A DNA stretch of 62,491 bases from Candidatus Omnitrophota bacterium (GTDB lineage: Bacteria; Omnitrophota; Gorgyraeia; Zapsychrales; Fredricksoniimonadaceae), in NCBI GenBank assembly GCA_030650275.1, contig JAUSEK010000026.1, positions 1 to 62,491 of the forward strand, written 5' to 3'. A program made the position numbers and the translations under genes. Within the stretch, counting starts at the first letter, position 1. Each line of letters begins with the position of its first letter. Positions 1 to 18,200 of this stretch are shown here, in pieces. The notes beneath the pieces are model-generated. The model did no database searches. It was not told the DNA's origin and worked only from the letters and a program-made list of their open reading frames with translations.

Positions 1-1
1 T

Positions 2-220
2 CCGCCGCGCGTCATTGCGTATACTGTTGGTGATCAAACCACCTATGTCATGCCTGACGATGATATCCGCACGCATCTTTCCCGCCGCGGCGACACTTCC
101 GATGAAATTGAAGGATTTATAGAACGCGTGAAACAGCATGAACGCCTGCACCGTGAGCGCAACGGCAGAGGTGATGCTCTTTCCGATCCCGCCCAGGAAG
201 AACGCGCGATTTTTGCCCTG
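2..220 (+). other. Repeated about 73 aa HExxH module, copy 1 (in giant ORF)
   Basis: PRVIAYTVGD..PDDDIR..IEGFI..QHERLHRERN.RGDALSDPAQEERAI; HERLH at 137-151; aligns with 3089-3304. Confidence 0.7.
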
Positions 221-3200
221 CAAGACACAGACGCATCGTGGTGGAAGGACCCTAAGCGGACCAACGTGGTCATGAGCGTACCGATCTTCTCTTTGCGGCG
301 TGAGGTCAATGATCCGGGCATCGGGAAGTTCACGGACATAGGGCCCTATTACAGGGACCATTTGGCGCCGCTGGGCATCGATGCCGTGTTGCTTCTACCG
401 CATTACGCAACGATCGATGGAAGCCCTTACGCGGTCGCAAGTCCGTATTCTTTGAATGAGGATTTCATTGACTGGATGGAGGTTGACGAGGTTAGGGAAG
501 AAGCGGCAATGTATCCGGATGTATTGCAGGAGTTGACTGCGCCGTCCTCAGAACAGCAGGCGGTCCATCACGGTTCACTCCACCACCGGGAACGAGCCAT
601 GGCCTTGAGGGCTGCCGAGCGGTTCTGGACGCGGGAGGTCCCTGCTGATTCAACGAGGGGCAAGATGTTTGACGACTTTGTGCAACGCAACAGGCCGTGG
701 CTGGATGATTACGCGGAGTTCATGGCGGTCCATGAGATCCTGGGTGGTGAATGTTTGACATGGTCTTCCCAGGCCTTGGAACAGGCGAAGCGGGAACAAA
801 CCTATTCGGCACTTGTGCGTTTGCACATGTATGCCCAATGGGTGGCTGACGAGCAGTTGCGCGCGGCCATTGCAATGGTGCATGAGCATGGCGGGAAGGT
901 CCTGTTCGATGTCCCGATGTTCCGCGGGAAAAACAGCGTCGATGTATGGAAGCATCGTGATCACTTTAAGAAAGCGGAAAATCCTGACCGGTATCCCGGC
1001 ATTGTCCGTGGAGAACTCAATGAACGCTGGGGTGATCTCGCGTTATGGAACTGGACTAGGGCCGGGCAGGAAGGGTACCGCTTTATGCTGGACCCCGTCG
1101 CCCATTGGCTTGATATGGGATTTGATGGGGCAAGGATAGACGCCCTTCATATGGCCTATAACAATGGATACGGACAGCTTGTCAGCGGCGATGAGCCGGG
1201 TAATGCCTATGTCAGCGCGCTGGCACGCGTTTTTCAGGAACGGGAGAAATTATCTGTTGCCGAGGCCTACGAAGGAAGGTCTGGGGACATAGCTCGGCGT
1301 GGATTTATCACGGTGCTTGGCGACTGGAAGCGGTTGAGTGATCATGATGGAACCGATGTGAATCCCCGTGACCCAAGGTATGACGATACCCGGGAGACCT
1401 TTATTCAAAATTTCAACGCGTATATGAATTCAGGCAATTTTTCCGGCAAGAATGCGCGGTTCATCGCTTTAGTCCTTGGGCATCAATGGGGCGATCCGAT
1501 GCCGATCAAGCGCATCACCGGTGATAATGGCACGCGCAGGAGCATATGGCATTACCGGATCCCCTTGCAGAGCGACGCCGACTATAAAAATCGGGCCCGT
1601 TTCGACGCGGGTGATTATCTTGCCGCGATCAAAGCGATCCGTCAGGGCAATATCTGGCAGGCAGGCGATGCCATCTCACGTACCTTGTCAGCCGCCGCTG
1701 ATACCTTTGTGAAACACGTCAACGGCACCGTTGAGATCTGGGCCTCCAGCCGCGACTGGTTCCAACAGCAATGGGGCAGGGATACCTTGATCGCCTTGCC
1801 GGGGCTATTGCTGGCCATGGGACGTTTTGATGAAGCCAGAGAAAATATCCGGAGTTTTGCCCGCCTGCAGCGCAATGGGTTGGTCCCCAACAGGATCCAG
1901 GACACACAGCATCCGGAGCGCACGGAATATAACACCGTGGACGGTTCAATGTGGTTTATTCAAGCCATTCAAAGTTATGTGGAGGCAACGGGTGACTGGA
2001 ATTTTGTCAATGAAATGCTTCCCACCATGCGCGCGATCGTTGAATCCTACCAGCACGGCACGGAGTATGAACGGTTCGAGTGGCCCCACCGTATTTACCG
2101 TATTTACATGGATCCTCAGGATGGCCTGATCGTCAGCCCTGCCCAAGCCACGTGGATGGACGCTGATCCGCATCATCGGGGGCCTGTGACCCCGCGCGAC
2201 GGCAAAGCCGTTGAGATCAACGCGTTGTGGTATGCCGATCTTAAATTTTTGGCCGAGGTCGAAGAGCAGGCCGGGGAACGTTCGAGGGCTGAGGCCCATC
2301 GGGATCTCGCGGGACGCGTCAAGATTTCCTTTAACGCAAAATTTTGGAACGCGCCGGAAGGCGCGCTGTTGGATGTTATTGAAGGAACGGACCCGTACCA
2401 GGGCGCGATACGGCCCAATATGCTGATAGCGGTTAGTCGGGGAGGGGACTTAATTTCGCCCGAGCGTCAAGCCGATGTCTTTGCGTCAGCCACCAAAGAT
2501 CTTTTGACCCCGTATGGATTGCGCACGCTTTCACCCAGGGATTCCCATTACCGTGGACGCTATGAAACCTGGAGACAGCCGTATCCGCATGAAGCAGATT
2601 TCCCTAATCATAAAGATTTTGCGTATCATCAGGGTACGGTGTGGCCGTGGTTGATCGGCCCGTATGTGGACACCTTGGCGCGCGTGCGGCAGCAGCAGGG
2701 TGTCGGCGAAGATGAGATCCAGGATGAGATCCGCCGGCTGTTGAGTCCGCTGATTGAATTCTTGATGACAAGCCCAGTCGGGAACATCCCCGAGGTGTTT
2801 GACGGAGATGCTCCGCATCGGGCAGGCGGCACCAGGGCACAAGCGTGGAGCGTCTCCGAGGTCCTTCGCGTACTTACAGAATATGGTGTGCTTGGTCCCC
2901 CGCGGGATGCGGGGCTTGCCGTGCCGGGGTTAATCGCGCTCATCTCCGCCGCCGCGGTCGGTTCTTTTGCGCAGGAGATCAGGGAAACGCATCCGGCCGA
3001 ACATCGGCAATTGGTGGAATACGGAAATTTGCTGGCCCGTTTTGAGGTCCAGCTGACAGACCAAGAGTCCACGGGCCCGCCCTGGCATCCCCGATATGTG
3101 AAATATACGCTGGGGAATGAAATTTATGGTATTCCCGATGATGAAATCCGCAGACAGATGAACGTTTGGCAGATTCCCACTGAAACCATTGAATCATTTA

Positions 3201-6200
3201 TCAAATTCATCAACGAACATGAAGAATGGCACCGTCTGCGCAATATCGGAGGTATTGCCCTGTCCGATCCCGATGCGGAAGAGCATGCGATCCTCACCAT
3301 TCAGGTTAACAGTATCGTACAGAAAAGCATTTCCTCATCCGCCGTATCACCGGTGAAGGATGCGACAGCGCTAATCACGCACGCCGCGGCTCTGATGGGG
3401 AAGGTCAGGGCATTACTGGATGAGATAGAAACTTTGAGGCAATTAAACCTTACCCTTAAAGAGTGGGCTTTGATAAGAAAGACGACGATCAATGCAGACG
3501 CGCGGATATTGCCGGAAGGTCATTTGCCTGATGATGGATTATTGATGGAGCATCGATGGATACAAGCGGCGAAGGCCAGAGAACTGCCGGAGCATATCCT
3601 TAATTTTGCGGACAATCATGAAGCAGAGTTGAATTTTACCGAAACGATGTTAGGGAATCCCATCGAGTTCTTAAAACGCGCCCAAATATTGATTGCCGAA
3701 AGCCCCGTTCTCTCTGAACAGACGGTCCTCAATATCACCGCCCTTGTTGAATCCGCGAATATACGGGTGGATGGCGTTAACCAAAGAGTGGGGCCTGTCA
3801 GAAGCCGTCTTAATACTTTCCAATCTAAAATGGCGAAAGAACTGCGCAAAGCCACCATGGCGTGGGGAAGGAACGACGGGCCGGGCCTGCAAGACCCGCA
3901 CGAGATCTTCAGCTATCTTTTGATTACATTAGTGACAGCCGCGGCTGTGGGGCTTTGGCTGGCCGCGAAGTGGTTCATCCGCAACCGCGGGACGGTGTTC
4001 AGGCAGCGATCGGCCGATTTTCTTGAACTTCTCGCGGCGCGTGTTGATCCAAAACGTATTTCCCGCAGCCGTCTGCAAGAGCAGGCATGGATCGACTCGC
4101 TGACCGGCCTGCACAACCAACGTTTTTTTGAAGCGATCATGGAAAAATACGTGGCCATCGCCAAGCGGTCTAAAACTAAATTATCCATGATCATCTTTGA
4201 TGTCGATGGCCTCAAGCAAGTCAATGACAGGTACGGTCATATCGCTGGCAATCGTGTTTTACGACACATTGCCGACAAGCTCCGCGATGTGGTGCGCGAT
4301 TCAGATGAAACCGCACGATGGGGCGGGGATGAGTTCACCGTGCTTTTGCTGAACGCGGATCTGAATGGCGCGGCCATTGTGGCGGAAAAGATCCGCGCGG
4401 CCGTAGAGACGCCTATAAGCGCCATTATCGGTGCCGAGATGTTGCCTGGCCAGGAGGATAGAAAAATTGCTGTGAGCCTGGGCGTTGCCGAATATGTTCA
4501 GGGGGATACGGGCCAGTCGTTTTTAAGAAAAGCCGACAGCGCGCTCTACCAGGCAAAGAGAGCGGGCCGCAACGGCGTGGTGGTTGCCGCGACGGAAATG
4601 GATCAGCCGCCCGTGCCATTTGTGCGCCACATCGTGCTGCAGGGAAGGGACTATACGATGATGTACGCGGTCGCCAACCCCCAGACGGCGGCAGCAGTGG
4701 CCAATCTTGTGCTGACCAGCGAAGCACGCATTGCCAAGGCGGGCGGGTTGAACGAATGGGAAGGGCATCTCATCGCCAGGGGTCGGCGCAACCCCGCGTG
4801 GTTCATCCGCTATGTCCAGCAGGTGTTGAAGGAAAACCCCTACTCCTTGGTGGCGAGAGATGCGCAGGAAAAAATTCAGGGCGTCGTCTTCGTTTCCCTG
4901 GTTGACGCAAAGAGCGCGGAGGAACTGCCGGCCCGGCACACCCTCATGCGTTATGCGCATCAGCGGCAGGGCGTGCGGTCTGCCATGGTGGACTTCTGGG
5001 TCACCGGCGCCGTCTCCGGGATGGCCGATGAGTTACTGCTTTCAACCAAGCACTTGGCACAGCATCTCAACCGGATGCAGCCGGAGACCTGCCGCATCGA
5101 ACGGCTCTTCGCGTACAGCACACCGCGTAGCTACAAGGAAGCGGATGATGTGTCGCGCGCGGTGATCGGCCCGCTGTCCATTGAGTTCTACCTTGCGTCT
5201 GGCAATGACCCGGTGTTGCATGGATACCACGTTCGCCTTGGCGGTACGATCGTTCGCATCATCTCCAAGGCATGGTCCTCCCGGCATAGCAATCTGGGCT
5301 ATGCCGTCGTTGTGCAGCACCCACTGATCGAGCCGTCCAAGCCGTTTGATCCAACCACCCTTAGCAGCTGGATATTTCCGACATTACTCGCGGCCGGCCT
5401 TTTGGCCAGAGTTCTGGGTTTGGACATGGACCATGCCGGGCAGCAGGCGGGATTGTTCTACGGGTGGCTGGTCAATTCTCTGGCGGGGGCAGTGATAGTT
5501 GTCTGGCAATGGCTGCGCACTCACGGTATCAGGCTTTTGCCGGATGGCCGTTATGTGTACATCGCCCGGCTTGTCCGCCGCCTAGCCAGGGAGGACAGCC
5601 CGTCGCTCGTCAGCATGGACCGCGTCATGGATGTTTTGGTCCAGGACCATGAACTGATGGCGCTCATCAGTGAAAACCGCCTGCTGGACCCGATGGCGCG
5701 ACTCATTGAAAGGTTCACCGAAGGCGCCCATATTTTCCGGTTCAATAAAAGCCAGCAGGAAGCGTTCGTCAAAATGTTTGAAGACAAGTATACACGCACA
5801 GTCAGCTTTGACCGCGACGGGTTATGGGTGGTGGAATTGTACACGCGTCCCGTTACGTGGAAGCAGAAATGGCAGGCATTTGATGAATCACCAGAGCCGA
5901 TAGGCACGTTCCGTTTTTATTATCACCAAAACGGAAAAGGGCCATCATTGCAGATCGGGTATCCTGAAATACACTCTGACTATCGCGGCCGGCATTTGTA
6001 CTCGGAAACCGTACGCGCCATCGTGGATGTGAACAATATTTCTTACGGTACGCGCGTCTGGCACGTGGTGGATGAGATACGCACGCTAGAAGCGCTTTAC
6101 GGGAAGATCGTTGGCGGGCAGGACGAGGAGGCGTATCCGGACAGACCGGAAGCGGACCGCAAGATCCTGTTGCGCGCAGACATCGTTCACGAATTAAACA

Positions 6201-9200
6201 GAAGGTTCGGGGGAGTATGGAGGGACGAGGAGTTCCTTAAGGCGACGGTTTTAGGAAGGCCCCTGGCAGGGCTGGACCGGTTGGCCTTAAAAGCCACGGA
6301 AGGCGGCCTTTGGATGACCGGGATCAATGGTGAACGCGCGCCCGCGTGGGAAGGGCCCCAGGCGCCATCCTGGCTGGAGGATTTCTGGCAAGACCATCCT
6401 GTGATCGCCAACCCCGCGGAACAGGAACGCCTCAAGCAGTGGGAAACAGGATTTGTTGAGCGTCTGCATGACCGGTTCCTGTTGCCGCTGGAAGACATCA
6501 GGACATTTCTTGAAGATGTCCGGCAGGCCATGACCGTTGGCCAGCCCGACACGCGTATGGATACGCGCGGCGTCGACATTTTTCTGGCGCAGCAGGGGCC
6601 GTCGGCGTTGACGCGCGTGGATGCCGCGTATCTCCGGAAACGCTTCGAAGAATTCGTCCCATTGTACAATAACATGGCGGCGGCGCTCAACGGGCACGCG
6701 CCGGTTTTCGGCAGGGCACGTTTATTGGAGGAGGTCTTTTTCACCCACCTTTTCTTGGGCCGGCGTTTTGACATGAGCGCGGCCCAGGCCCATTGGGCGG
6801 TCAATTTGTATCGCCAAAATAATATACCGCAGGGGATAATTCTTGGGTGGCTGGCGCGGCATTCCCTCAAAACGGCCATGAATGAAGAACAGGCCTGGCT
6901 GGCTTTTGAGCGCGATCCCAACCTGATGCTGCGCCTGGCAGGCCTGTTGACCGAAGACGCGCACAGCGGTCTGCATCTTGTGTTTTATCGCCTGATTAAA
7001 GCTAAAGCATTGAGCAATGTCCAGCATCTGGCTGTCCTGTCAGCCGACGATGAGGACGGCAGGCGGGAGGCATTCAGCCGCGGCCTTTATAAAGTTATCA
7101 GAGCGGCCATAGGTTATTCGTATCTGGCGGGTCATCGAATACAGAAACGGATGTTGTCGCCGAAGGAACGGGAATCATTAAGGCAGATATATGCCGCGTT
7201 GCTGAATTTTATCCCCTTGGCTGTCAAGGTTGTGCCGCTGCGCGTGTCACGTCCATCGAAACACCGGCGGAGCTTTCCTATTACCCCTGGATCAAAGGCG
7301 AATGATGAAAAGAAAAAGGCGCGCCGCGTGGATGAGCGGTTGCGGCAAACGCGTGGATTGAATTTTAATGACCTGCGTAATTTTACCCCACAAGACGTGG
7401 ACAAACACATCGACGGCGGGCGCAACGGTCCGCGCCTGGGAGACCCGCACGAGGCATTCAGTTTCATTTTGTACATATTAGTGACAGCCGCGGCCGCTGC
7501 GGTCATGTGGTTTGTCCGTTCCGTGCGCGCGGAATTGGCCGGAGACCTTAAACAATTGGAAAGATCCAAACGCGACAGCGGAAAGATCAGAATGACGTTT
7601 TGGGTGAGCACCCTTGCCGTCGGCGGAGCGGAAAAGGTTGTTTTGGACTTGATGAATAATATAGATACCCGCAGATTTGATATTATCACGGAGACCCGTG
7701 ACAGCAAAGAAAGATATGATGTCGAGATCACAGGTGCCCAGCGGCGGGGTATGTATTTCATCATCAAACCGCTTCTATATTCAAAATTCAGACAGTATTT
7801 ATCAAATAGATCGGGGATCTTAAGATTGTTAAGGCTTATGTTGCTTCTCGCCCGGTCCCTAAGGCAGGCGCCCATCGAATATTTTATCCACAAAAATACT
7901 CGCCCGCGTATTTATCATATTCACGAGTATGGTATACGGCAATCCGGCAAAAAGGCCATTGCTAAATTGGCGGGCGTTCCCGTGGTCATGACCACTTATC
8001 ATACTTTTCCAAAGTCAAATGGGCCGATCCGTTCTCTGGATGACATGATCACGTGGGCCAATCATTTTATAACCAGGATAAGTTTTCATTATATCGATGA
8101 TGTTATTGTGGCGCTGACGGAGGCTGAAAAACAGGAACATATACGCGTGAACCGTGTGCCGGCGGAAAAAATCGTTGTGATACCTAACGGTATTGATCAG
8201 CGGCTCTTTATGGAGCAGGCGGACGTTGAAAAGGTTTTGGATGTCAGAAGAAAACTTCATTTGCCGGAGGATGCTTTTGTGGTTGGCGCCGTGGGCCGGC
8301 TGTCTTTGGAAAAAGGTCATCGTCATCTGGTGGAAGCCGCACGTATTGTTTTGGAAGAAATTCCGCAGGCGTACTTCCTGATCATCGGCGAAGGCACAGA
8401 ACGCGGTAACTTGACCCGACAGATCGAGGCGGCTGGTTTGAGGGGAAGGGTCGTCATGCCCGGTGTACAGACCCATGATTCTTTACCCCTGTATCTGGCG
8501 GCCATGGATGTATTTACAATGCCGTCGCTGATCGAAGGTCAGCCATTGGCCAAGATCGAGGCCATGGCTTCCGGCAAAGCGGTGATTGCCAGCAAGGTAG
8601 GTGGAATGCCCGAAACATTAGATGGCGCAGGAATACTGGTCCCGCCCGCTGACCCGCAGACCCTGGCCCGTGAGATCATCCGTTTGGCCAAAGATCCGGA
8701 ATTGCGCGCGAGGTTGGGCCGGGCCGCGCGTGAACGCGCACAGTTGTTCTCCGTGGAGAAGATGGTGGAAGATTATGCCCGGCTTTATCAACGGCTGGCG
8801 GCAAACCGCGGGATAAGTCTTCAGCCTGCTTCCGCGTCGATCGACAGCGGGCGCAACGGCATGCCGAAACACGAGGAACGGCATATTCCTTACGGAATAC
8901 ATTCAAGGGGGTGGAGAAATAATAACGACGTGGGTCATAACTTATCGGGCGAGTGGTATCGTGCGCCGCATGGCCGGCGCGGTGTCGTTGAAATTTCAAT
9001 CCCCGTTATGGGTAAGTTCTGGACCAGCATGTGGGCAAGGGGAGATTGGACCGCCTTTGGCAGGGGTTATTTTGGAGAGATGCTCACCTTTTTGGAAAAC
9101 TTTATTGAGGATGTCCGCCGCCAAAATCCGGCCGCCCGACTTGTGGATTTCGGGACTGGAAATTTGGAGGTGCCACGCATTATACGGGACGCGCTTACCG

Positions 9201-12200
9201 ATTTCACCGTCTATGCATTCGATGTGGCGGACCCAAGTTGGTTGTATCGGCCGGACGCCGATCATTTCTTCAAGACGGATATCGAGGCCGTTGGTTTACT
9301 GGATGGTCAAGTTCATGCCGTAACAGCCGTGTATGTTCTGGAATATGCCCGACGGATGGACAATGTACTTCGGGAGATCCATAGAGTGCTCAAACCCGGC
9401 GGCCTGGCCGCGATCATCGCCATTCATCCGAGATCAAAACTTGTTGAATTTGCCGCGCAAAACGTCAATAAGGGGGAAACTTGGCTGAAAGAGATGAAGC
9501 CGGGACTGCGGGGACCGGATCATCTTGAAATACACAAAGCCGGCATTCTCGCAAGACTGAACATCATCAAATGGCGCCTCGAAAGAGCGGCAGAGATCCC
9601 GGATACAGAAGAAGGAATGAACGCATGGCTGCGGCGGCATGGGTTCGTTGATATTAAACTCGAACATCTCCATGATCAGGACAGCTTATTGGCATGGGGT
9701 GTGCGTGTGCGCAAGCCCGTTTCGAACCAGTCGCCCGCCGCGCCAAGCGCCTCTGCCAATCTCAGCGGGCTGGATCTGCACAGTCTGCATGATATCACCC
9801 ACGTCTTCTGGCTGGCGTTGGGGTTTGTCATTGCGATCGTGGCCGCAGCGGTAAAGAGGATCAGAAAAGGACGCCAAGTCCATTATTATCCCACCGTGGA
9901 TTCATGGCAGGAGCATGAACGCGCTGTGAACTTTCATTCCCATGCCGCCCATAAGACCACGCGGCGCGCGTTAAGGATCATGGACAGTGTCTTTGCGGCC
10001 TTTTTGGCCATTGGCATAATTGATGTGTTTCTCGGGGGTCTCGGAATAGCCCCTTTGCTGCGTTTGGTATTTTCGTATCTGTTTGCCAATATTCTGGTGG
10101 CGGTCCTTGTCTGGCTCCATGAATTTGTCCATGTGCTTTTCGTCCCGAAAGAGGATAGGACGCTCAAGAACTTCTGGGGGAATATGAGCGGCAGCAATTG
10201 GTTGCACCTGGCCTTCCGCAGGCCTTATACGGTCCCGGGTCGTTTACCCTATGTGCAGATCATGAGCGACCTTTCCGATGCGCGCCGGCGGTGGGTCAAT
10301 TATTCGGCGCTTATCTTTACGTTTTTGAGTTCATCGGCGATCGTTTTTGTCTCCTGGATTCTTTTTACCAGGGGAACATGGCCGATGCCTGCGGGCTTGG
10401 CCGCGATAGTGGCTTTTAGATCCGCGTGGGCCGGTGATTTCCGTAACCCCAGCAAGCATACGTTCCACTGGGGCGCGTCCGACCCCGGGCCGACCGGTCC
10501 CGCCGATGAAGATATTTTTGGAGATCTGGCACATACTCTGGAGAAATATTTTAACAGTATGGACTTTCCGGACAGCATGGCTGAAGATGCGCGCCATGAA
10601 TTTTTCGGACGGTTGTTGCAGAACATTGTGGAAGATCGTCGGCTGAAGCACGGCATACTGATGTCGTGGGTCTTGTGGTCGCTGCGTTCTTATGAACATG
10701 GCGTGAATCCTCTGGAACGTGTTTTTGACATCCTCGGGACTCCTATGCCGCCGCAAAAAATGATCAGATCGGCGATCCGGGAATTTGAACGGGTGTTGGA
10801 CAGGGCAACCCACGCGGTCTCTATGCCGGCGCGCGACTATCAAATGGTTGGTGATAGATCAGCCCGTTCGGCTGGCCGGGCGGTCGTCAAAAAGCAGACG
10901 CCAAAGCAGGCCCCTGGCCACAGAGGTCCGACGGAAGGCAATATGTCCGGGCTGCTGCCATTGGCAGCGGGAGTTGTTGGGGTAGGGATGACAGTGGTCA
11001 TCGCCGGATGGATCCTGGCCTCGATATACAAGCCCCAGGTATTGAAATTTGTCGCCGGACGTGCCCCGCCCGGACCTGTCCGCCGCATTGTCTTGTCCGT
11101 ATTGGGTCGTCTTCTGCCAGAACAATTTATTCCTATTCAGAATCATCTGCGTCGCCTCGTCAAAGGTGATTTTCTTCTTTTGAAATGGCTTCGCCGCAGT
11201 ACACCCATATTGCTTGATTTGAATACGACGCCGCAGACCGTTGGACCGTCGCCGGATCACGGCACAACAGATCCTGGCATAACGGTCATTCCAACAGATG
11301 CCGGCAATCCCAATGCCATGGGAAGTTATGAGGTTCTTTACGGTACACGATTCCTGGGGACGCATGAACATGTTGCGCTCCCGGACAAACGCATTGTTTT
11401 ATATCAATATGACGAATTACCCAAAGAATTAAGAAACGTTGCCATTGGTCACAGGCGCCAAGAGTTTGTTCGCTGGACAGAGAATAAAATGAGCCAAGCG
11501 GTAGGATACGCACATTTTACGACCCGTAGCGCTGGATTTGCTTTGGACAGTGTTGATTTGGCTGGCCGCAGGGTTTTGGATGTTGGGATGGGAGAAGGCA
11601 CGCTGGCCATTTTGGCCGCCAAGAAGGGGGCCAAGAGCGTCGTGGGAGTGGATGTGTATCCACGCATCATTGATGTTGCGCAAAAGAACGCCGAACTCAA
11701 CCGGGTTACGTCCCAAGTTCGCTTCTACATCCAGGATGCCAAACAATCAATTCCCGGGGAAGACGGGTCTTTTGATGTGATTATCATGAACGTGCCCCGG
11801 TATCAATTCTACGAGTTGGTGGGGGCCCTGATGTTGCGGTATCCCATGGTCCAGACGTTCATCCTGGGCGGCAGTGCGCAAAGCATGGACCGCAGCCGTG
11901 TCCTTGATATATCTGACAAAGTTGTCAGACTCTTTCGCCGGCGCGGGTTTGTTTTTACGGCGAAGTTCGTTGACACTATTAACCGTTATTATGACGGGAG
12001 GATGTGGAATACCTATATCATCCATTCTCCATCGGTTGAAGCGCCCAATGCCTTGCGGCAGTATATGGGCAGCATGAAGACCGAATTCACGACGGTAGTG
12101 ATAGTGCTGTCGATGTTCGCATCAGCGCCCGGTCTGCCCGCGGGTGTTGCGGCCGCTGCTGTGCTGGCGGGCCTCGGGTTGTTGGTGCTGGGCATGACCG

Positions 12201-15200
12201 TAGTCACGGGCCGCGGCAAAAAAGGTCCGAGGGGTCTTTCGTCCAAAAAAGTAAAACTCAAAGCCGTCGCAACGAAGCAACGATATTATCTGATGCGATT
12301 TATCCTGACAACGGTGGACAAGGGTGCCCTTGACCGGCTGATCACGCATTTCTCAGCCGTCCAAAAAAGACACGTGTCCGACGTTGGGACGGCCATTAGG
12401 CAGATCGTGGAGAAGACAAGAAGCCAATGGAAACCGGACGTCCCCGTCCCCCCAGAGTGGGGTGATATTGGGCGCAAATTTTTTGATTGGGCAAAGGACC
12501 AGGAATTCGTGACTGTCCGCACACAACAGATCCGAGAGCGAGCGCAGGAGCTGCTTTCGGGACGTATGCGTGAGTTGTTTGAGGTCCGTGCGGGCCTGGT
12601 TTCGTGGCGCAATTTGGGTAAAATGAACTATGACCCGAATTTTTTGACCAGAGCACTGGAGATCATCCGCACCAACCTACCGCTCTTGGATGACGGCCTC
12701 ATTCCGTCTCCGGGAATGGCCCATGACGACTTGCGCGGAACCAAAGCTATGATCATGGTGACCGGCCGGCGGGTCAGTTGGGAGGGTTCGTTGATCACGG
12801 CGGGAATTTTCGGGCTGATCGGTTTGGCGGCAATTGGGGGAAGTTTATCGATGCAAGGGATCGGGCTGGTCGCCATATCAGCGGCGGGCGTATATGTTAT
12901 TCAAGGGTTGGTCATTATGTTCCTGCCGTTGGCAGTGTCAAGGGCTGGCTCATTATGGGCAAGGACCAGATGGGGCGTCCCCGGTCCGCCTGATTATCCG
13001 CTCATCAAGCCACTGCGCGATATGAGATATAACTACTACACGCCCTTCCTTGAAGTAACAGACAGACATCAAATCATCAATGCCCGTCTCCAGGCCGGAT
13101 TCTTATTCTTACCCCCGTTGCTCCAATGGATCTTTTACCTGCCGATCGGGTTGCTGCGTGCTGTTCATGAACGTCCGGCCCATTGCACGCCGCTGGCACG
13201 CCTGCACGAAGCCCACAATGAACTCATCGCTTATCCGTTGGAAATACTGTTCGTCTTTACGGGCGCCATCGGCTATGCCTTTGCCGCGACGCCGGAGGCC
13301 CTGCTGGCGGGAATATTGATTGGGCTGTCGATACAAATCATTTTGAGTTGGTGGGGGCATGGCCGGGAACAGGCCTTCCGTGAGGCAGTGCCGGACATCA
13401 TCTTGAAAGCAGACAGACCCGGGCTTATTTCCCGCCGCGTTGTCTTGCGGACCTTGGTCGCGGGCATAGCAGGGACGGCTGTGATCTGGAAGATGGGAGA
13501 TCTGCAGGATCCATTAGAAGAACAAACGGCCAAGCAGAGGGGCTATGAAGATTGGTTTGCGGACAGGGACGAGTGGCTGGCCGAGGGGGACATGGTCAAC
13601 GCCGCGTTGGCCAACCGGCGCGGTGAATTGCTTCGGGCGGCACAGATGGTGCCTGTGATGGCCCAAATGTCTCCGCGGGTTTTTTATACGTGGATAGCGA
13701 GTGTCGAGTCACTGGAGTTTTTCCGGGGACGAGCAGAACCAGACGGCAAAATAGCGCGCGGCGAGCTTCAGGCGTGGATTGAGGGATACAGGAACTTAAG
13801 CCGGCAGCCCAACACGCCAGCGCCTGATATGAAAACCGTCGAGGAGGTCCAGCAACAACTCCGCTTGCTTGCCGCACAGGTTGCCATAAATCCGCGCGAC
13901 CGCCGCAACCCCATTCCTGACCGCCGGCCGGAAGCAAGGTCTGTGCTGGACAGGAGGACCATGTTTGCCGTTATGTTAGGTTTGCCCAAACTGCCGCCGG
14001 CGCCCGCCCGCTTGATCCTGGATGTGGGGGCTGGTGATGGCCGCACCACACAAGCCTTGGCACTAAGCAACCCGAATGCGCGGATCATCATGATAGACCC
14101 CAGCACCAACTCGTTTGAGGCCGCCAAACAGCGTTTGAAAAGTTTCCCGAATGTCGAATTCGTCGGCAGGCATGTTGAACAATGGGACTCATCAGGCCTT
14201 GCAGGTTCGGCAGACCACATTTATTTTCTCTTTCCATTTTTTCTGTACAGGCCATATAAGCATCCTATTTCAGCAGATACCGCCCGGCGTATCGCTGAAA
14301 AAATTTTTGGATTGTTAATGCCTGGATCAGGCGAGTTTGTTATGGTGACGGAATTTCCGGAAATCATAAGTGTGTTCATAAAAGCGTTCAGAGCCGCCCA
14401 ACTGCAAGTTGACAGCGAGAAAGTTCCGACGGGGGACTTGGTGCAACATGTTCCTGTTGCGATACATTCCGACATTTATGCCTACATCTCCAAAGCGACG
14501 GAGGCACGTTTCAAGACCGTGTTGATCATCCACGCTCGCAAACCGGTCGAGGGCATATCCTCGCCCGCCAAACGTGGCCTTTCGAAACTCACCGTCTTTC
14601 TGCTGGCCGCCGGCGCAGGGTTGACGCAGCTGTTTGTTGCCGCGCCGTGGATAGGGCGCGTTCATGCCGTTGGGTTTGCAATGGTCCTGCTGGGTTTTGG
14701 CGTGGCGATGCTGGGCGGCAATCTCGCTAAACTTACGCGGGTGCTGAAAAGATGGCGCGAGGTTTCACGTTTTACCGCGCAGGAACGACAGGACTTTACC
14801 TTTTTCACAAGAGAAACCATTGATACTTTAGCGGCAGGTCGGCCCCAGAAAGAGCGCGACCGGTTTTTCAAACGGATCGCGTTGAAGCCGTTAACAAAGA
14901 TCCATATTCTTTTGCGTTATGACAGTCATCTTTGGCGTGACCTATTTTTTGTGGCGATCATATCGGTGTTAGGGGCATTTGAAGGATGGATTTTGGGACG
15001 CGCACTATTACATTTTGGCAATACCGGCGTCGCGATCATAACCTGGTTGGGGGGTATCGTATTTGGTACGTTCGCGCTTGTGAGGTCCCGGTTACCGGCG
15101 AGATCGTCGGCCAACATCATTGCATGCATAATACCGGGTGGGACGACCATTTTTGTGAATCGCCGGCTCACAGCAGGACGGCGTGACCGATTTGTTGCAG

Positions 15201-18200
15201 CGGTGCCTCATGAGACGGCACATCTCCTTCATGAGTACGAGTTAGCGGCCAAGGATACGTCGTCTGTCATTCAAGGTGTTGTAGAATTGCTCTGGGGGGA
15301 GAAGACCGGCCGAGACACAGTTATTGGTGATCCCGGATGGTACGACGAAGGCCGGCGTCTTGCAACGATCCAGGACCCGGCACAAAGGGAGCGTGAGCTC
15401 CTTCAGTTCAGCCGCCGCGAAGCGCACGCAGACGATTGGGCTCAATCGGTGGTCAGCGGCCCGGGCCATCCAGAGCCGGAATCCATGCGTCCCTATGGCG
15501 TGGCGTTGGCATCGTATATTTATGAGACCATTGGGAGGCTTCGGCTTGAAGGGGCGCCTTTCCCCGAGCGGTTCGGCGACATCAATCTTTATCTGCGTGC
15601 TAACCTCAATTTAGAAACACGGGACATTGCCTCGGTGGAGCAAATTGCCGAGGCCATAGCCCGGACTTCAACGCTCTCTCCGGCAACGGTCGATACGGTC
15701 CTTGATAACTTTACGCTTTCTCCGGAAATCCGGCAAGGGGTGGCACAACTCGCGTTGAAGGGGGGGATCGTCTCACATCTGCGGCACTTCGAGGTGCGCC
15801 GTAGCAGATCAGCGCCGCCCGCCGTCGTGAGACGATCTCCCGAAGATCCAGGGCACGAGCGCCACAGGAGTTGGGGGAGACAACCCCGACCAAGATGGCT
15901 GGGTGGCGATGAGGATGTGGAGTCGGATCCGCTGAATGGTGACTGGGCCATCCCGGCTCTCTTGCGCCACCATCCCAAGAAACCGATTGTGCCGTCCGCG
16001 AGCGACGCGAGTCCCGAGCCAAGTCGAAGGGCCGCCGCGCCGTCTGTTTTACCTGCCTCTGATGTACTGGTCGGTCTAAGGACCGCCATGCTGCGACCCG
16101 GCGACCGGGTGCTGCATGTCGGATCCGGACGATCCAGACTGCCATTTCTCGACGCGTCATTAGGGGCCTCCGACGTCTTTGTCACCGATGCGCGGCCGGG
16201 CAGTCTGCAGGTTGTTGCGCACCCCGGCGTCACATTCATCAGCCGGCCGGTGGACGTAACTCGTCTTAACGAGGACTTGCGGCAGGAGCGGTTTGATCAG
16301 ATCACGATGTGGAACGTGTTATCCGAGGCGTATTTCCAAGGAGACCGGGCCCATGCGCTCATGGAACTCATCCGGGCATTGCGTCCACACGGGCGTATCT
16401 GGGTCACAGATGACCATGTCCGTCTAAGCAATGGGGAAGCGCGTTATGTTCACGACTTGCTGCCGGAGGTTGCTGATGCGATGGGTTATCGTATCAAAGT
16501 TCTGGCCGGTCCGAAAGATCTTCCCGGCGCCTACGCGGATGTGCTGGCGTATGAATTATGGCCTGATCATCGCATAGACAAGCTCAAAGGGCTTTCGAAA
16601 ACCAGCGTCTTTCTGCTGGCTGCCGGCGCTGGGTTGACGCAGCTGTTTGTTGCCGCGCCATGGATAGGGCGGGTCCATGACGCCGGGCTTGCGATGGTCC
16701 TGTTGGGTTTTGGCGCTGCGGCGCTGGGGGCCGGTCTGGCCGTGTCTATTAAAGAAAAATTGGCAATGGCCCGGGAACATCTGCCGTGGACCACCGGGGC
16801 AGTGGCCGGGGCGCTGGTCATCATACCTTTTCTGAGATGGAACTTTTCCGATCCCGATAATCTTTTGGTCGGGAATTTGATGGTTTGGGCGCAGGTCCTG
16901 TTGACCGGATTTTTGAGTGGATTTGGGGTGGAGGCGCGTGGGACGTTTGTTAATTTTATGACCATGATCTTTTTGCCTTTCGTAGAGCTGACCTTGGCGC
17001 GGTTGTGGTTAAGGGTGGCGGTCAATAATGTCAGGGCCACGTTCTTCGGCGGCCTTTTCTTTGGCCTGTCCGCTGCATTTTTTGGCTATGCGATCGGACA
17101 TCCGCTTTTGGACCTGGCGCGCATGGCGTTGGGATCTCCGCCCCAGGACAGCATTTCCAATATCATTACATTTTGGATACGAGGCGGCCAGTTCCTTAAG
17201 GTTGCGCCTACGGTGCCGCAATTTTTGGAGGTCGTTGCGGCAGTGTTTGGCGTGTGGTATTTGAGCGAACGGTCAGCCAGGTGGATCGATGGTAAGATTG
17301 AACCCCGTTTAAGACGGCGCGTTGAGCGTAGGCGTCTTGCTGTAGAGAAAGCGGTGAGAATCGCAGACCAGGCCGCGCGTCGCGCCGAGCGCCAGGCGGA
17401 ACGGGCCGTCGAGTCTATCCGAAAGGAAAAACCTAAAAAGAAAATAGTCGCGCCGGCGGTCACCAAAACGGCCGCACCGGCTTCACAGGAGATTATCAAA
17501 CCAGCCAAAGCGGCAGCGCCGACGATCGCAACACCTATTGAAACAGCCGAACCCGCCTCTGTCGAGGAACCATTTGTTCTTTCCGCACTTTCCATCAGCG
17601 ATCTTGAATCACCCGATACTGCGGAACCATTTATTCTTACCTCACTGGACATTATTGAGCCCGAATTTGATTTTGAATTCAATGTTGCGCTAGGATCGGC
17701 CGAAGAACCTTATACCGGTCAATCCAATCTTGATTTTGAAACGCCGATGCCGGAATCGGCACCGGCGCCGTCAGCCGCGGATGAATCTGTAGCGGAAGAC
17801 CTCGACTCCTGGTTGGGGGACGATGAGTTGGGACGTGAGATCGCCGCGCGTTTAGGTCAGATGCCCGTCGAAGAAGTTGAAAGCCTTCTTGATCTGGTTT
17901 GGTCCGATCCCTCTCTTTCATATGCCGAAAAACGGCAAATGCTGGCGGATCTTCTACCGAAAGAGAATATTTTGATAGAACAGACCTTAAGGTTTGATCT
18001 TGGTCGTGATCCCTTGGGCTTAAGTTTGATCGTATGGCTCGAAACCATGACGGTCCCGGAGATCCAACAACGTTTTAAGGATATCCATGGGCGCAAGGCC
18101 CTGATTAAAAAAGTACTTCAGAGATCAATGAATCCCCAGATGGCAGAACTGATCGCGGATGCTGCCAGACGTAGCGGCCAGCGGCCGCTGATTGTTATTG

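Follow-up and report, generated by a model that had tools for sequence, protein, structure and literature searches.

A repeated HExxH module at the block seams of an Omnitrophota giant gene, tentatively read as a minimal metal-dependent hydrolase

Are the giant proteins of Omnitrophota, which run to tens of thousands of residues, used as one chain or as pieces? Their cleavage has been openly stated to be an unsolved question (bioRxiv 10.1101/2023.11.21.568195). The window analysed here, a whole contig of 62,491 nucleotides (nt) from a Candidatus Omnitrophota bacterium (GenBank JAUSEK010000026.1), begins inside such a gene, and the gene carries a small repeated module with an HExxH motif that makes the question directly testable, because it offers a small expressible domain, a short list of invariant residues and an exact seam position. 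An earlier note on this DNA had described two copies of about 73 amino acids (aa) around a block of glycogen enzymes and had proposed that they process a polyprotein. We find that the module is longer, that it stands at seams between enzyme blocks, and that it recurs in other giant frames; our leading reading, still a tentative one drawn from sequence and predicted structure, is that it may be a metal-dependent hydrolase of a new, minimal kind, most probably a peptidase that acts in cis.

The module and the gene that carries it

The two look-alike stretches are real. They occupy window nt 2-223 and 3089-3304, share 44% identity over 73 aa (tblastn against the genome, E 5e-15), much more than chance would give, and do bracket the glycogen block, with the Pfam domains Glyco_hydro_77 and GDE_C between them. 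The size of ∼73 aa was an underestimate: the module spans ∼125–135 aa and starts ∼50 aa further upstream, at P-I-S-A-A-A-V. The second stretch (aa 1030-1101 of the window frame) lies within a complete copy, c3. The first is a homologous copy, c2, but not the whole module it was taken for, being truncated by the contig start, with its N-terminal 47 aa found at the 3′ end of another contig, C20. Across copies the N-terminal boundary reads [H/R/K]-[N/P]-I-[T/S]-[S/A], and there is no conservation ahead of it. The frame that holds c2 and c3 contains five HExxH motifs, against 0.34 expected from its composition. A hidden Markov model (HMM) built from the copies finds four modules in the genome, c1 to c4, all in one gene that would run from contig C13 (minus strand) through C20 into the window, which is contig C24 (Table 1).

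The host genome comprises 1.63 Mb in 26 contigs, and the gene is broken over three of them. In the window it is frame 2 of the plus strand, open from nt 2 to a stop at 26041 (8,679 aa), with the 5′ end open at the window start. C20 (4,685 nt) is one frame of 1,561 aa with both ends open; its first 141 nt are identical to window nt 1-141, and its last 141 nt (4545-4685) equal nt 1-141 of C13, minus strand, where a 17,411-codon frame is still open as it reaches the contig end. Ends that share exactly 141 nt are the mark left by a de Bruijn assembler with k = 141 where contigs meet at a repeat node. Read in the simplest way, the path goes from C13 (minus strand) through the repeat to C20 and through the repeat again to C24, which would make a candidate single gene of ∼27,650 codons (17,411 + 1,561 + 8,679 aa over 141-nt overlaps), the copy number of the C20 segment not being fixed by the assembly. 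The exact DNA repeat of c1 and c2 is at least 282 nt long (two 141-mers and a short unassembled gap, probably of 1 nt), beginning at the L-P-I-S codons, the first of the module, and reaching Q-H-E. Because this repeat is longer than the k-mer, the giant gene breaks in short-read assembly; the missing repeat node was evidently dropped from the bin, and an exact-pattern search of the metagenome contigs for the junction found no spanning contig. Past the exact repeat the two copies are ∼75% identical in DNA as far as the final Gln codon, and the flanks on both sides are unrelated.

The gene encodes glycosyltransferase, glycoside hydrolase (GH) and methyltransferase domains in one frame, together with 58 hydrophobic segments. 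With a frame of tens of thousands of codons and such domains, it is an Omnitrophota giant multi-enzyme membrane protein of the Archaeovorin type.

All four copies sit exactly at block seams, and the block between c2 and c3 (aa 80 to ∼965) shows how exact these seams are. It matches a free-standing gene of 1,384 aa in a genome of the same family (49% identity, query residues 5-890 of 906) and also two adjacent open reading frames (ORFs) in another genome. Homology to the free-standing gene begins at W-W-K, 6 aa past the final Gln of the module, and stops at E-Y-G-(I/V)-L, directly ahead of the next module; the head and tail domains around the block in the free-standing gene are markedly different from the surroundings in the giant gene. 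Judged by this homology, the seams marked by the module are real gene-equivalent boundaries.

The free-standing gene with GH77 and debranching domains, L039, lies on contig C11 of genome G167 (1264-5418, minus strand). It has a signal or transmembrane (TM) start, a ∼400-aa head domain that is also present on a neighbouring ORF, and a short tail domain; related genomes thus place this cassette on different scaffolds.

Relatives, conserved residues and predicted fold

Searched with a profile, 1.84 billion representative proteins yielded 12 matches, eight of them true: seven are parts of proteins of 851–5,767 aa, and the eighth is a piece of 195 aa that stops short of the HExxH. Among 401 genomes sampled across the phylum the module is present in 20, only within long or giant open frames (1,311–81,822 aa, the shortest of which are cut, or possibly cut, by contig ends), with one to five matches in each of the other 19 carrier genomes. 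A deeper profile added two genomes, with one and four copies. Copies are present in the frame of 81,822 codons, which belongs to another genome (L008, L028). The search of giant proteins that the earlier note had called for recovers a family, always in large proteins or in long to giant frames. In some genes the copies are clustered ∼400 aa apart.

The neighbours of the module vary widely: glycogen enzymes, GT2 and GGDEF in this gene, and LOG-like, ACT, HD_4 with RelA_SpoT, CHAP, sigma-70 region 4 and DUF5715 domains elsewhere. An all-against-all comparison of the module flanks revealed no recurrent partner domain. By this independence of its surroundings the module is a self-contained unit. 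Specificity for glycogen enzymes was considered and rejected on the diversity of flanking domains among carriers.

We collected 47 copies, of which 38 entered the conservation alignment. HExxH is intact in 32 of the 47, at an overall identity of only ∼25–30%. Conservation of the motif among homologues had been set beforehand as a check, and it holds for the main subtype: type-I modules, from about 20 genomes, keep it in 32 of 34 copies, one of the other two having an insertion (HEDLEQALH) and one being degenerate (EDNRKFH). A second subtype, type II, accounts for twelve copies (consensus IDQIxIHExxPTExEAIxAQ); these lack the loop and the second His by deletion but keep the HE, the downstream Glu and the Gln, and they share giant frames with type I. 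The sole invariant column of the 38-sequence alignment is the Gln (Q1101 in c3), and only E1015, H1073, E1074 and E1094 reach 90% or more. The earlier note had also guessed at a conserved acidic residue downstream of HExxH, and this is borne out by the last of these, a Glu on the next predicted helix, 8–17 residues past the second His. At the conserved H-R-x-R-N codons c1 and c2 differ synonymously only.

AlphaFold2 models were made for c3 (14 sequences; mean predicted local distance difference test, pLDDT, 83.3; predicted template modelling score, pTM, 0.77) and for a more typical member (38 sequences; pLDDT 89.6, pTM 0.84). The two agree in topology, with the order helix 1, a long helix 2, a loop, a two-stranded hairpin, a short helix 3, a long helix 4, a loop and a long helix 5. 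In both, HExxH is in the last third of predicted helix 4, with the conserved Glu in the first turns of helix 5 and the Gln further along that helix. The agreement of two confident models upholds the proposal of an independently folding unit at block boundaries with its HExxH on a helix, and on these models the module is a previously undescribed, autonomously folding domain of ∼130 aa. The near-invariant polar residues are predicted to lie on helix faces that also bear core hydrophobic residues. By helical periodicity, F-I-H-H of helix 4 and E-(I/L)-Q of helix 5 should each fall on one stripe, and an antiparallel hairpin of helices 4 and 5 would oppose the two stripes, with the Glu level with the second His.

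Cutter, connector or recombination seam

The arrangement we consider first has a standard module at the seams between the enzyme blocks of giant multi-enzyme frames in Omnitrophota. One buried putative metal site would be formed by residues of three helices: E1015 of helix 2; H1073 and E1074 of helix 4, joined by H1077 in the main subtype; and E1094 with Q1101 of helix 5. Its metal ligands would be the two His and the downstream Glu, while the Glu beside the first His would act as general base, with the Gln as a polar helper; the putative peptidase would then cut the giant chain near the module itself. We infer metal binding, catalysis and the giant protein as the module's own substrate alike. 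A minimal metal-dependent hydrolase is ranked first because the five best-conserved positions, one His, three Glu and one Gln, are more like an active or binding site than a passive spacer or plain linker. An HExxH on a helix with a Glu on the next helix is the signature of gluzincins. The module is in these respects a plausible candidate for the cutting of giant proteins. In its strongest form, which we think unlikely, the gene would encode a genuine polyprotein of a cellular organism and amount to an operon within a single reading frame; its new-fold modules would cut at their own N-terminal boundary and free blocks such as GH77 with the debranching enzyme as separate proteins.

A number of results weigh against a hydrolase. 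No zincin or other peptidase family matched the module in sequence, profile or fold. In Pfam, three copies gave no family at E≤10 (SprT-like, WLM, M48, M78, MPTase-PolyVal and eCIS_core/DUF4157 being among those covered); NCBIfam and PHROGs gave only scattered single-member matches at E>0.03; and the only match of a sequence profile search of the PDB was a de novo designed protein (E 0.49). Foldseek comparison of the two models with the PDB found nothing below E 1.5 and 2.5, with no zincin among the listed matches. The models contain only two β-strands, and thus lack the mixed sheet of at least three strands beside the active-site helix, superposable on solved zincins, that a zincin should have, even though the HExxH is on an α-helix in both. 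Both His are not present in all homologues, given type II, the insertion and the degenerate copy, and the 12 type-II modules are themselves conserved and reside in the same giant proteins. The 8–17 residues between second His and Glu are also few as compared to the usual ∼18 or more, a spacing shorter than in known gluzincins. Finally, the module marks only four of the many block boundaries of this gene, and few seams in other giant genes too.

The conservation of type II without the second His would be readily explained if the module were a non-catalytic connector or docking domain, a small helical bundle with a buried polar or metal-stabilised network that spaces, orients or oligomerises the blocks of a membrane-tethered giant protein, its HExxH being structural or a relic. 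We regard this, the main rival, as a somewhat doubtful explanation, although it has several observations on its side. The diversity of neighbouring domains, from LOG, ACT and CHAP to the glycogen enzymes, is what a generic connector would show; the fold searches return only unrelated, mostly helical proteins; the region of helices 3 and 4 is weakly like the two-helix repeats of P0009 and P0013; and the same gene holds another repeated linker family in four copies. It accounts poorly for five best-conserved columns that are all polar, and since the module is never outside large or giant proteins, a docking role would need to be confined to such proteins. The usual ligands of structural zinc sites are Cys and His, whereas an invariant Glu beside the first His, with a further Glu and a Gln, is a catalytic signature. 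The same polar cluster would also serve a small metal-dependent hydrolase with a substrate other than the giant chain, acting in trans on proteins or peptides or on a non-peptide; the few copies per gene and their clustering in some genes, a poor fit to one cutter per released block, would also be less troublesome. Such an enzyme seems quite improbable for a module that is never free-standing, always at block seams and without likeness to any known hydrolase fold. The DNA itself raises another explanation, namely that the module is a recombination seam with no function at the protein level, a repeat kept alike by gene conversion that lets blocks duplicate or be exchanged. The c1/c2 repeat, exact from the first module codon and similar up to the last between unrelated flanks, is what such a process would leave, and the block of GH77 and GDE is found in other carriers in related genomes. 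Even so, we give this very little credence: the protein is conserved across families of the class at an identity that leaves no DNA identity to recombine on, the module has invariant polar residues and a confident predicted fold, and conserved codons of c1 and c2 differ synonymously.

The hydrolase reading would, if the module is active, amount to a new family of minimal metallopeptidases with a new fold, and would show that a cellular organism uses a polyprotein strategy. An inactive module would still be a new family of standard connector domains, useful to delimit functional blocks in giant genes. By our searches none of Pfam, NCBIfam, PHROGs or the PDB contains the family, and its predicted fold is apparently new; Foldseek against the viral library BFVD likewise found nothing below E 0.3.

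Known systems, coordinates and other motifs of the giant protein

An HExxH module within a multi-enzyme giant protein is of a known kind, as in polyvalent or autoprocessing proteins. In minigluzincins the Glu on the following helix is the third ligand. The minimal zincins with solved structures are the minigluzincins proabylysin and projannalysin (provisional family M95) and the Acel_2062 mini-zincin family, the latter an Asp-zincin with HEXXHXXGXXD; no peptidase activity was detectable for the M95 scaffold, and even minimal zincins have three strands (PMC3890501). The order of elements in our module loosely recalls these proteins of 105–110 aa, in that all are very small domains (105–130 aa) with a helix ahead of the sheet, HExxH on a helix and a helix past the motif. 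It differs in its two predicted strands, a further helix that separates the hairpin from the HExxH helix, two N-terminal helices and a Glu much closer to the second His, in the lack of any sequence, profile or Foldseek similarity, and in being always embedded in giant proteins and never free-standing.

Zincin-like MPTase domains in polyvalent proteins of phages and conjugative elements were reportedly described by Iyer et al. in J Bacteriol in 2017, with release of domains by autoproteolysis as the proposal. Those domains resemble the module in standing among unrelated enzyme domains of one very long polypeptide. Unlike them, the module has no Pfam peptidase match at E≤10 and no recognisable zincin fold, and the gene that carries it is on a cellular chromosome, in a bacterial phylum that is free-living or predatory. 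DUF4157/eCIS_core members, sought for a comparison profile, were absent from 121 genomes of the class and from the controls.

Within Omnitrophota, C39 and S8 peptidase domains have been proposed to process the giant proteins (West-Roberts et al. 2023, bioRxiv 10.1101/2023.11.21.568195), and the wording HExxH, metallo-, zincin and linker is absent from that preprint and from a 2026 Omnitrophota survey. The proteins concerned are the same class of giant multi-enzyme, multi-TM proteins, but C39 and S8 are recognised cysteine and serine families found mostly near the N-terminus, whereas the module is an unrecognised HExxH type repeated at internal seams. The concept of a built-in protease between effector modules of one chain is shared with the autoprocessing domains of toxins. 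In MARTX-type toxins a cysteine protease, activated by a host cofactor, acts in one copy at several linkers; the module instead has several copies of a metal-type motif, in probably cytoplasmic segments.

Table 1. Module copies, conserved residues and the enzymes between c2 and c3 (nt of the window unless stated otherwise)
Feature	Position	Strand	Motif or basis
Copy c4	aa 16136-16257 of C13 part		HEDEH
Copy c1	across C13/C20 join		HEGSH
Copy c2, C-terminal 74 aa (window aa 1-74), β-hairpin to conserved Gln	2..223	+	HERLH; translation, HMM (profile positions 48-122)
HERLH of c2 (H46, E47, H50)	137..151	+	alignments
Conserved Glu of c2 (E67)	200-202	+	
Conserved Gln of c2 (Q74)	221-223	+	
4-α-glucanotransferase (GH77), PF02446, aa 93-380	278..1141	+	Pfam E 5.7e-31
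Amylo-α-1,6-glucosidase (GDE_C), PF06202, aa 582-956	1745..2869	+	Pfam E 2.4e-106
Copy c3, complete, aa 981-1114	2942..3343	+	HMM E 2.7e-66
E1015 on helix 2 (≥90% of copies)	3044..3046	+	alignment column E46
HEEWH of c3 (H1073, E1074, H1077), helix 4	3218..3232	+	
Helix 5 start, E1094 (≥90%) to Q1101 (invariant)	3281..3304	+	alignment columns E124, Q131

The giant protein has other repeated and HE-containing elements. The second repeated linker family, of ∼150–170 aa, has its four copies in the part on contig C13 (minus strand, aa ∼13847-17069 of the giant protein), with the consensus ..DP.+.LP...EAIG...VRAG...NG..Y.LI.. followed by HE/H motifs such as LVHESNNGTHDQN and FIHELNGGTHHQN; its kinship with the HExxH module was considered and rejected (hhalign probability 0.1%). 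An HExxH site at aa ∼6171, also on C13 (minus strand), reads ..HPILTGMDPKVVHAFIAHELAHG.. and has a weak, sub-threshold SprT-like Pfam match (E 0.005, 17 bits); this may be a candidate protease of a more conventional, zincin-like type within the giant protein. Over the last 3,033 aa of the C13 part (nt 1-9100) there is no Pfam match at E≤1, and by eye this region shows HIT-like motifs twice (GGHWHTHS and GGHYHTQS) and a cytidylyltransferase-like ISSTRIRR motif.

The module profile also weakly matches ∼40-aa tandem two-helix repeats (..Y.KM.KMHLPDGAIRQKM..EGF...EIE.FF..) in the unrelated proteins P0009 and P0013, so that the part from helix 3 to helix 4 resembles a helix-extended-helix motif. 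In the window itself, HExxH motifs of the giant frame at 10118-10132 and 15209-15223 are both without a Pfam match at E≤1. An LHEFVHV motif of the window frame lies within a hydrophobic, TM-like segment, and a PHETAHLLHE motif comes after ..GGTTIFVNRRL.. in the same frame.

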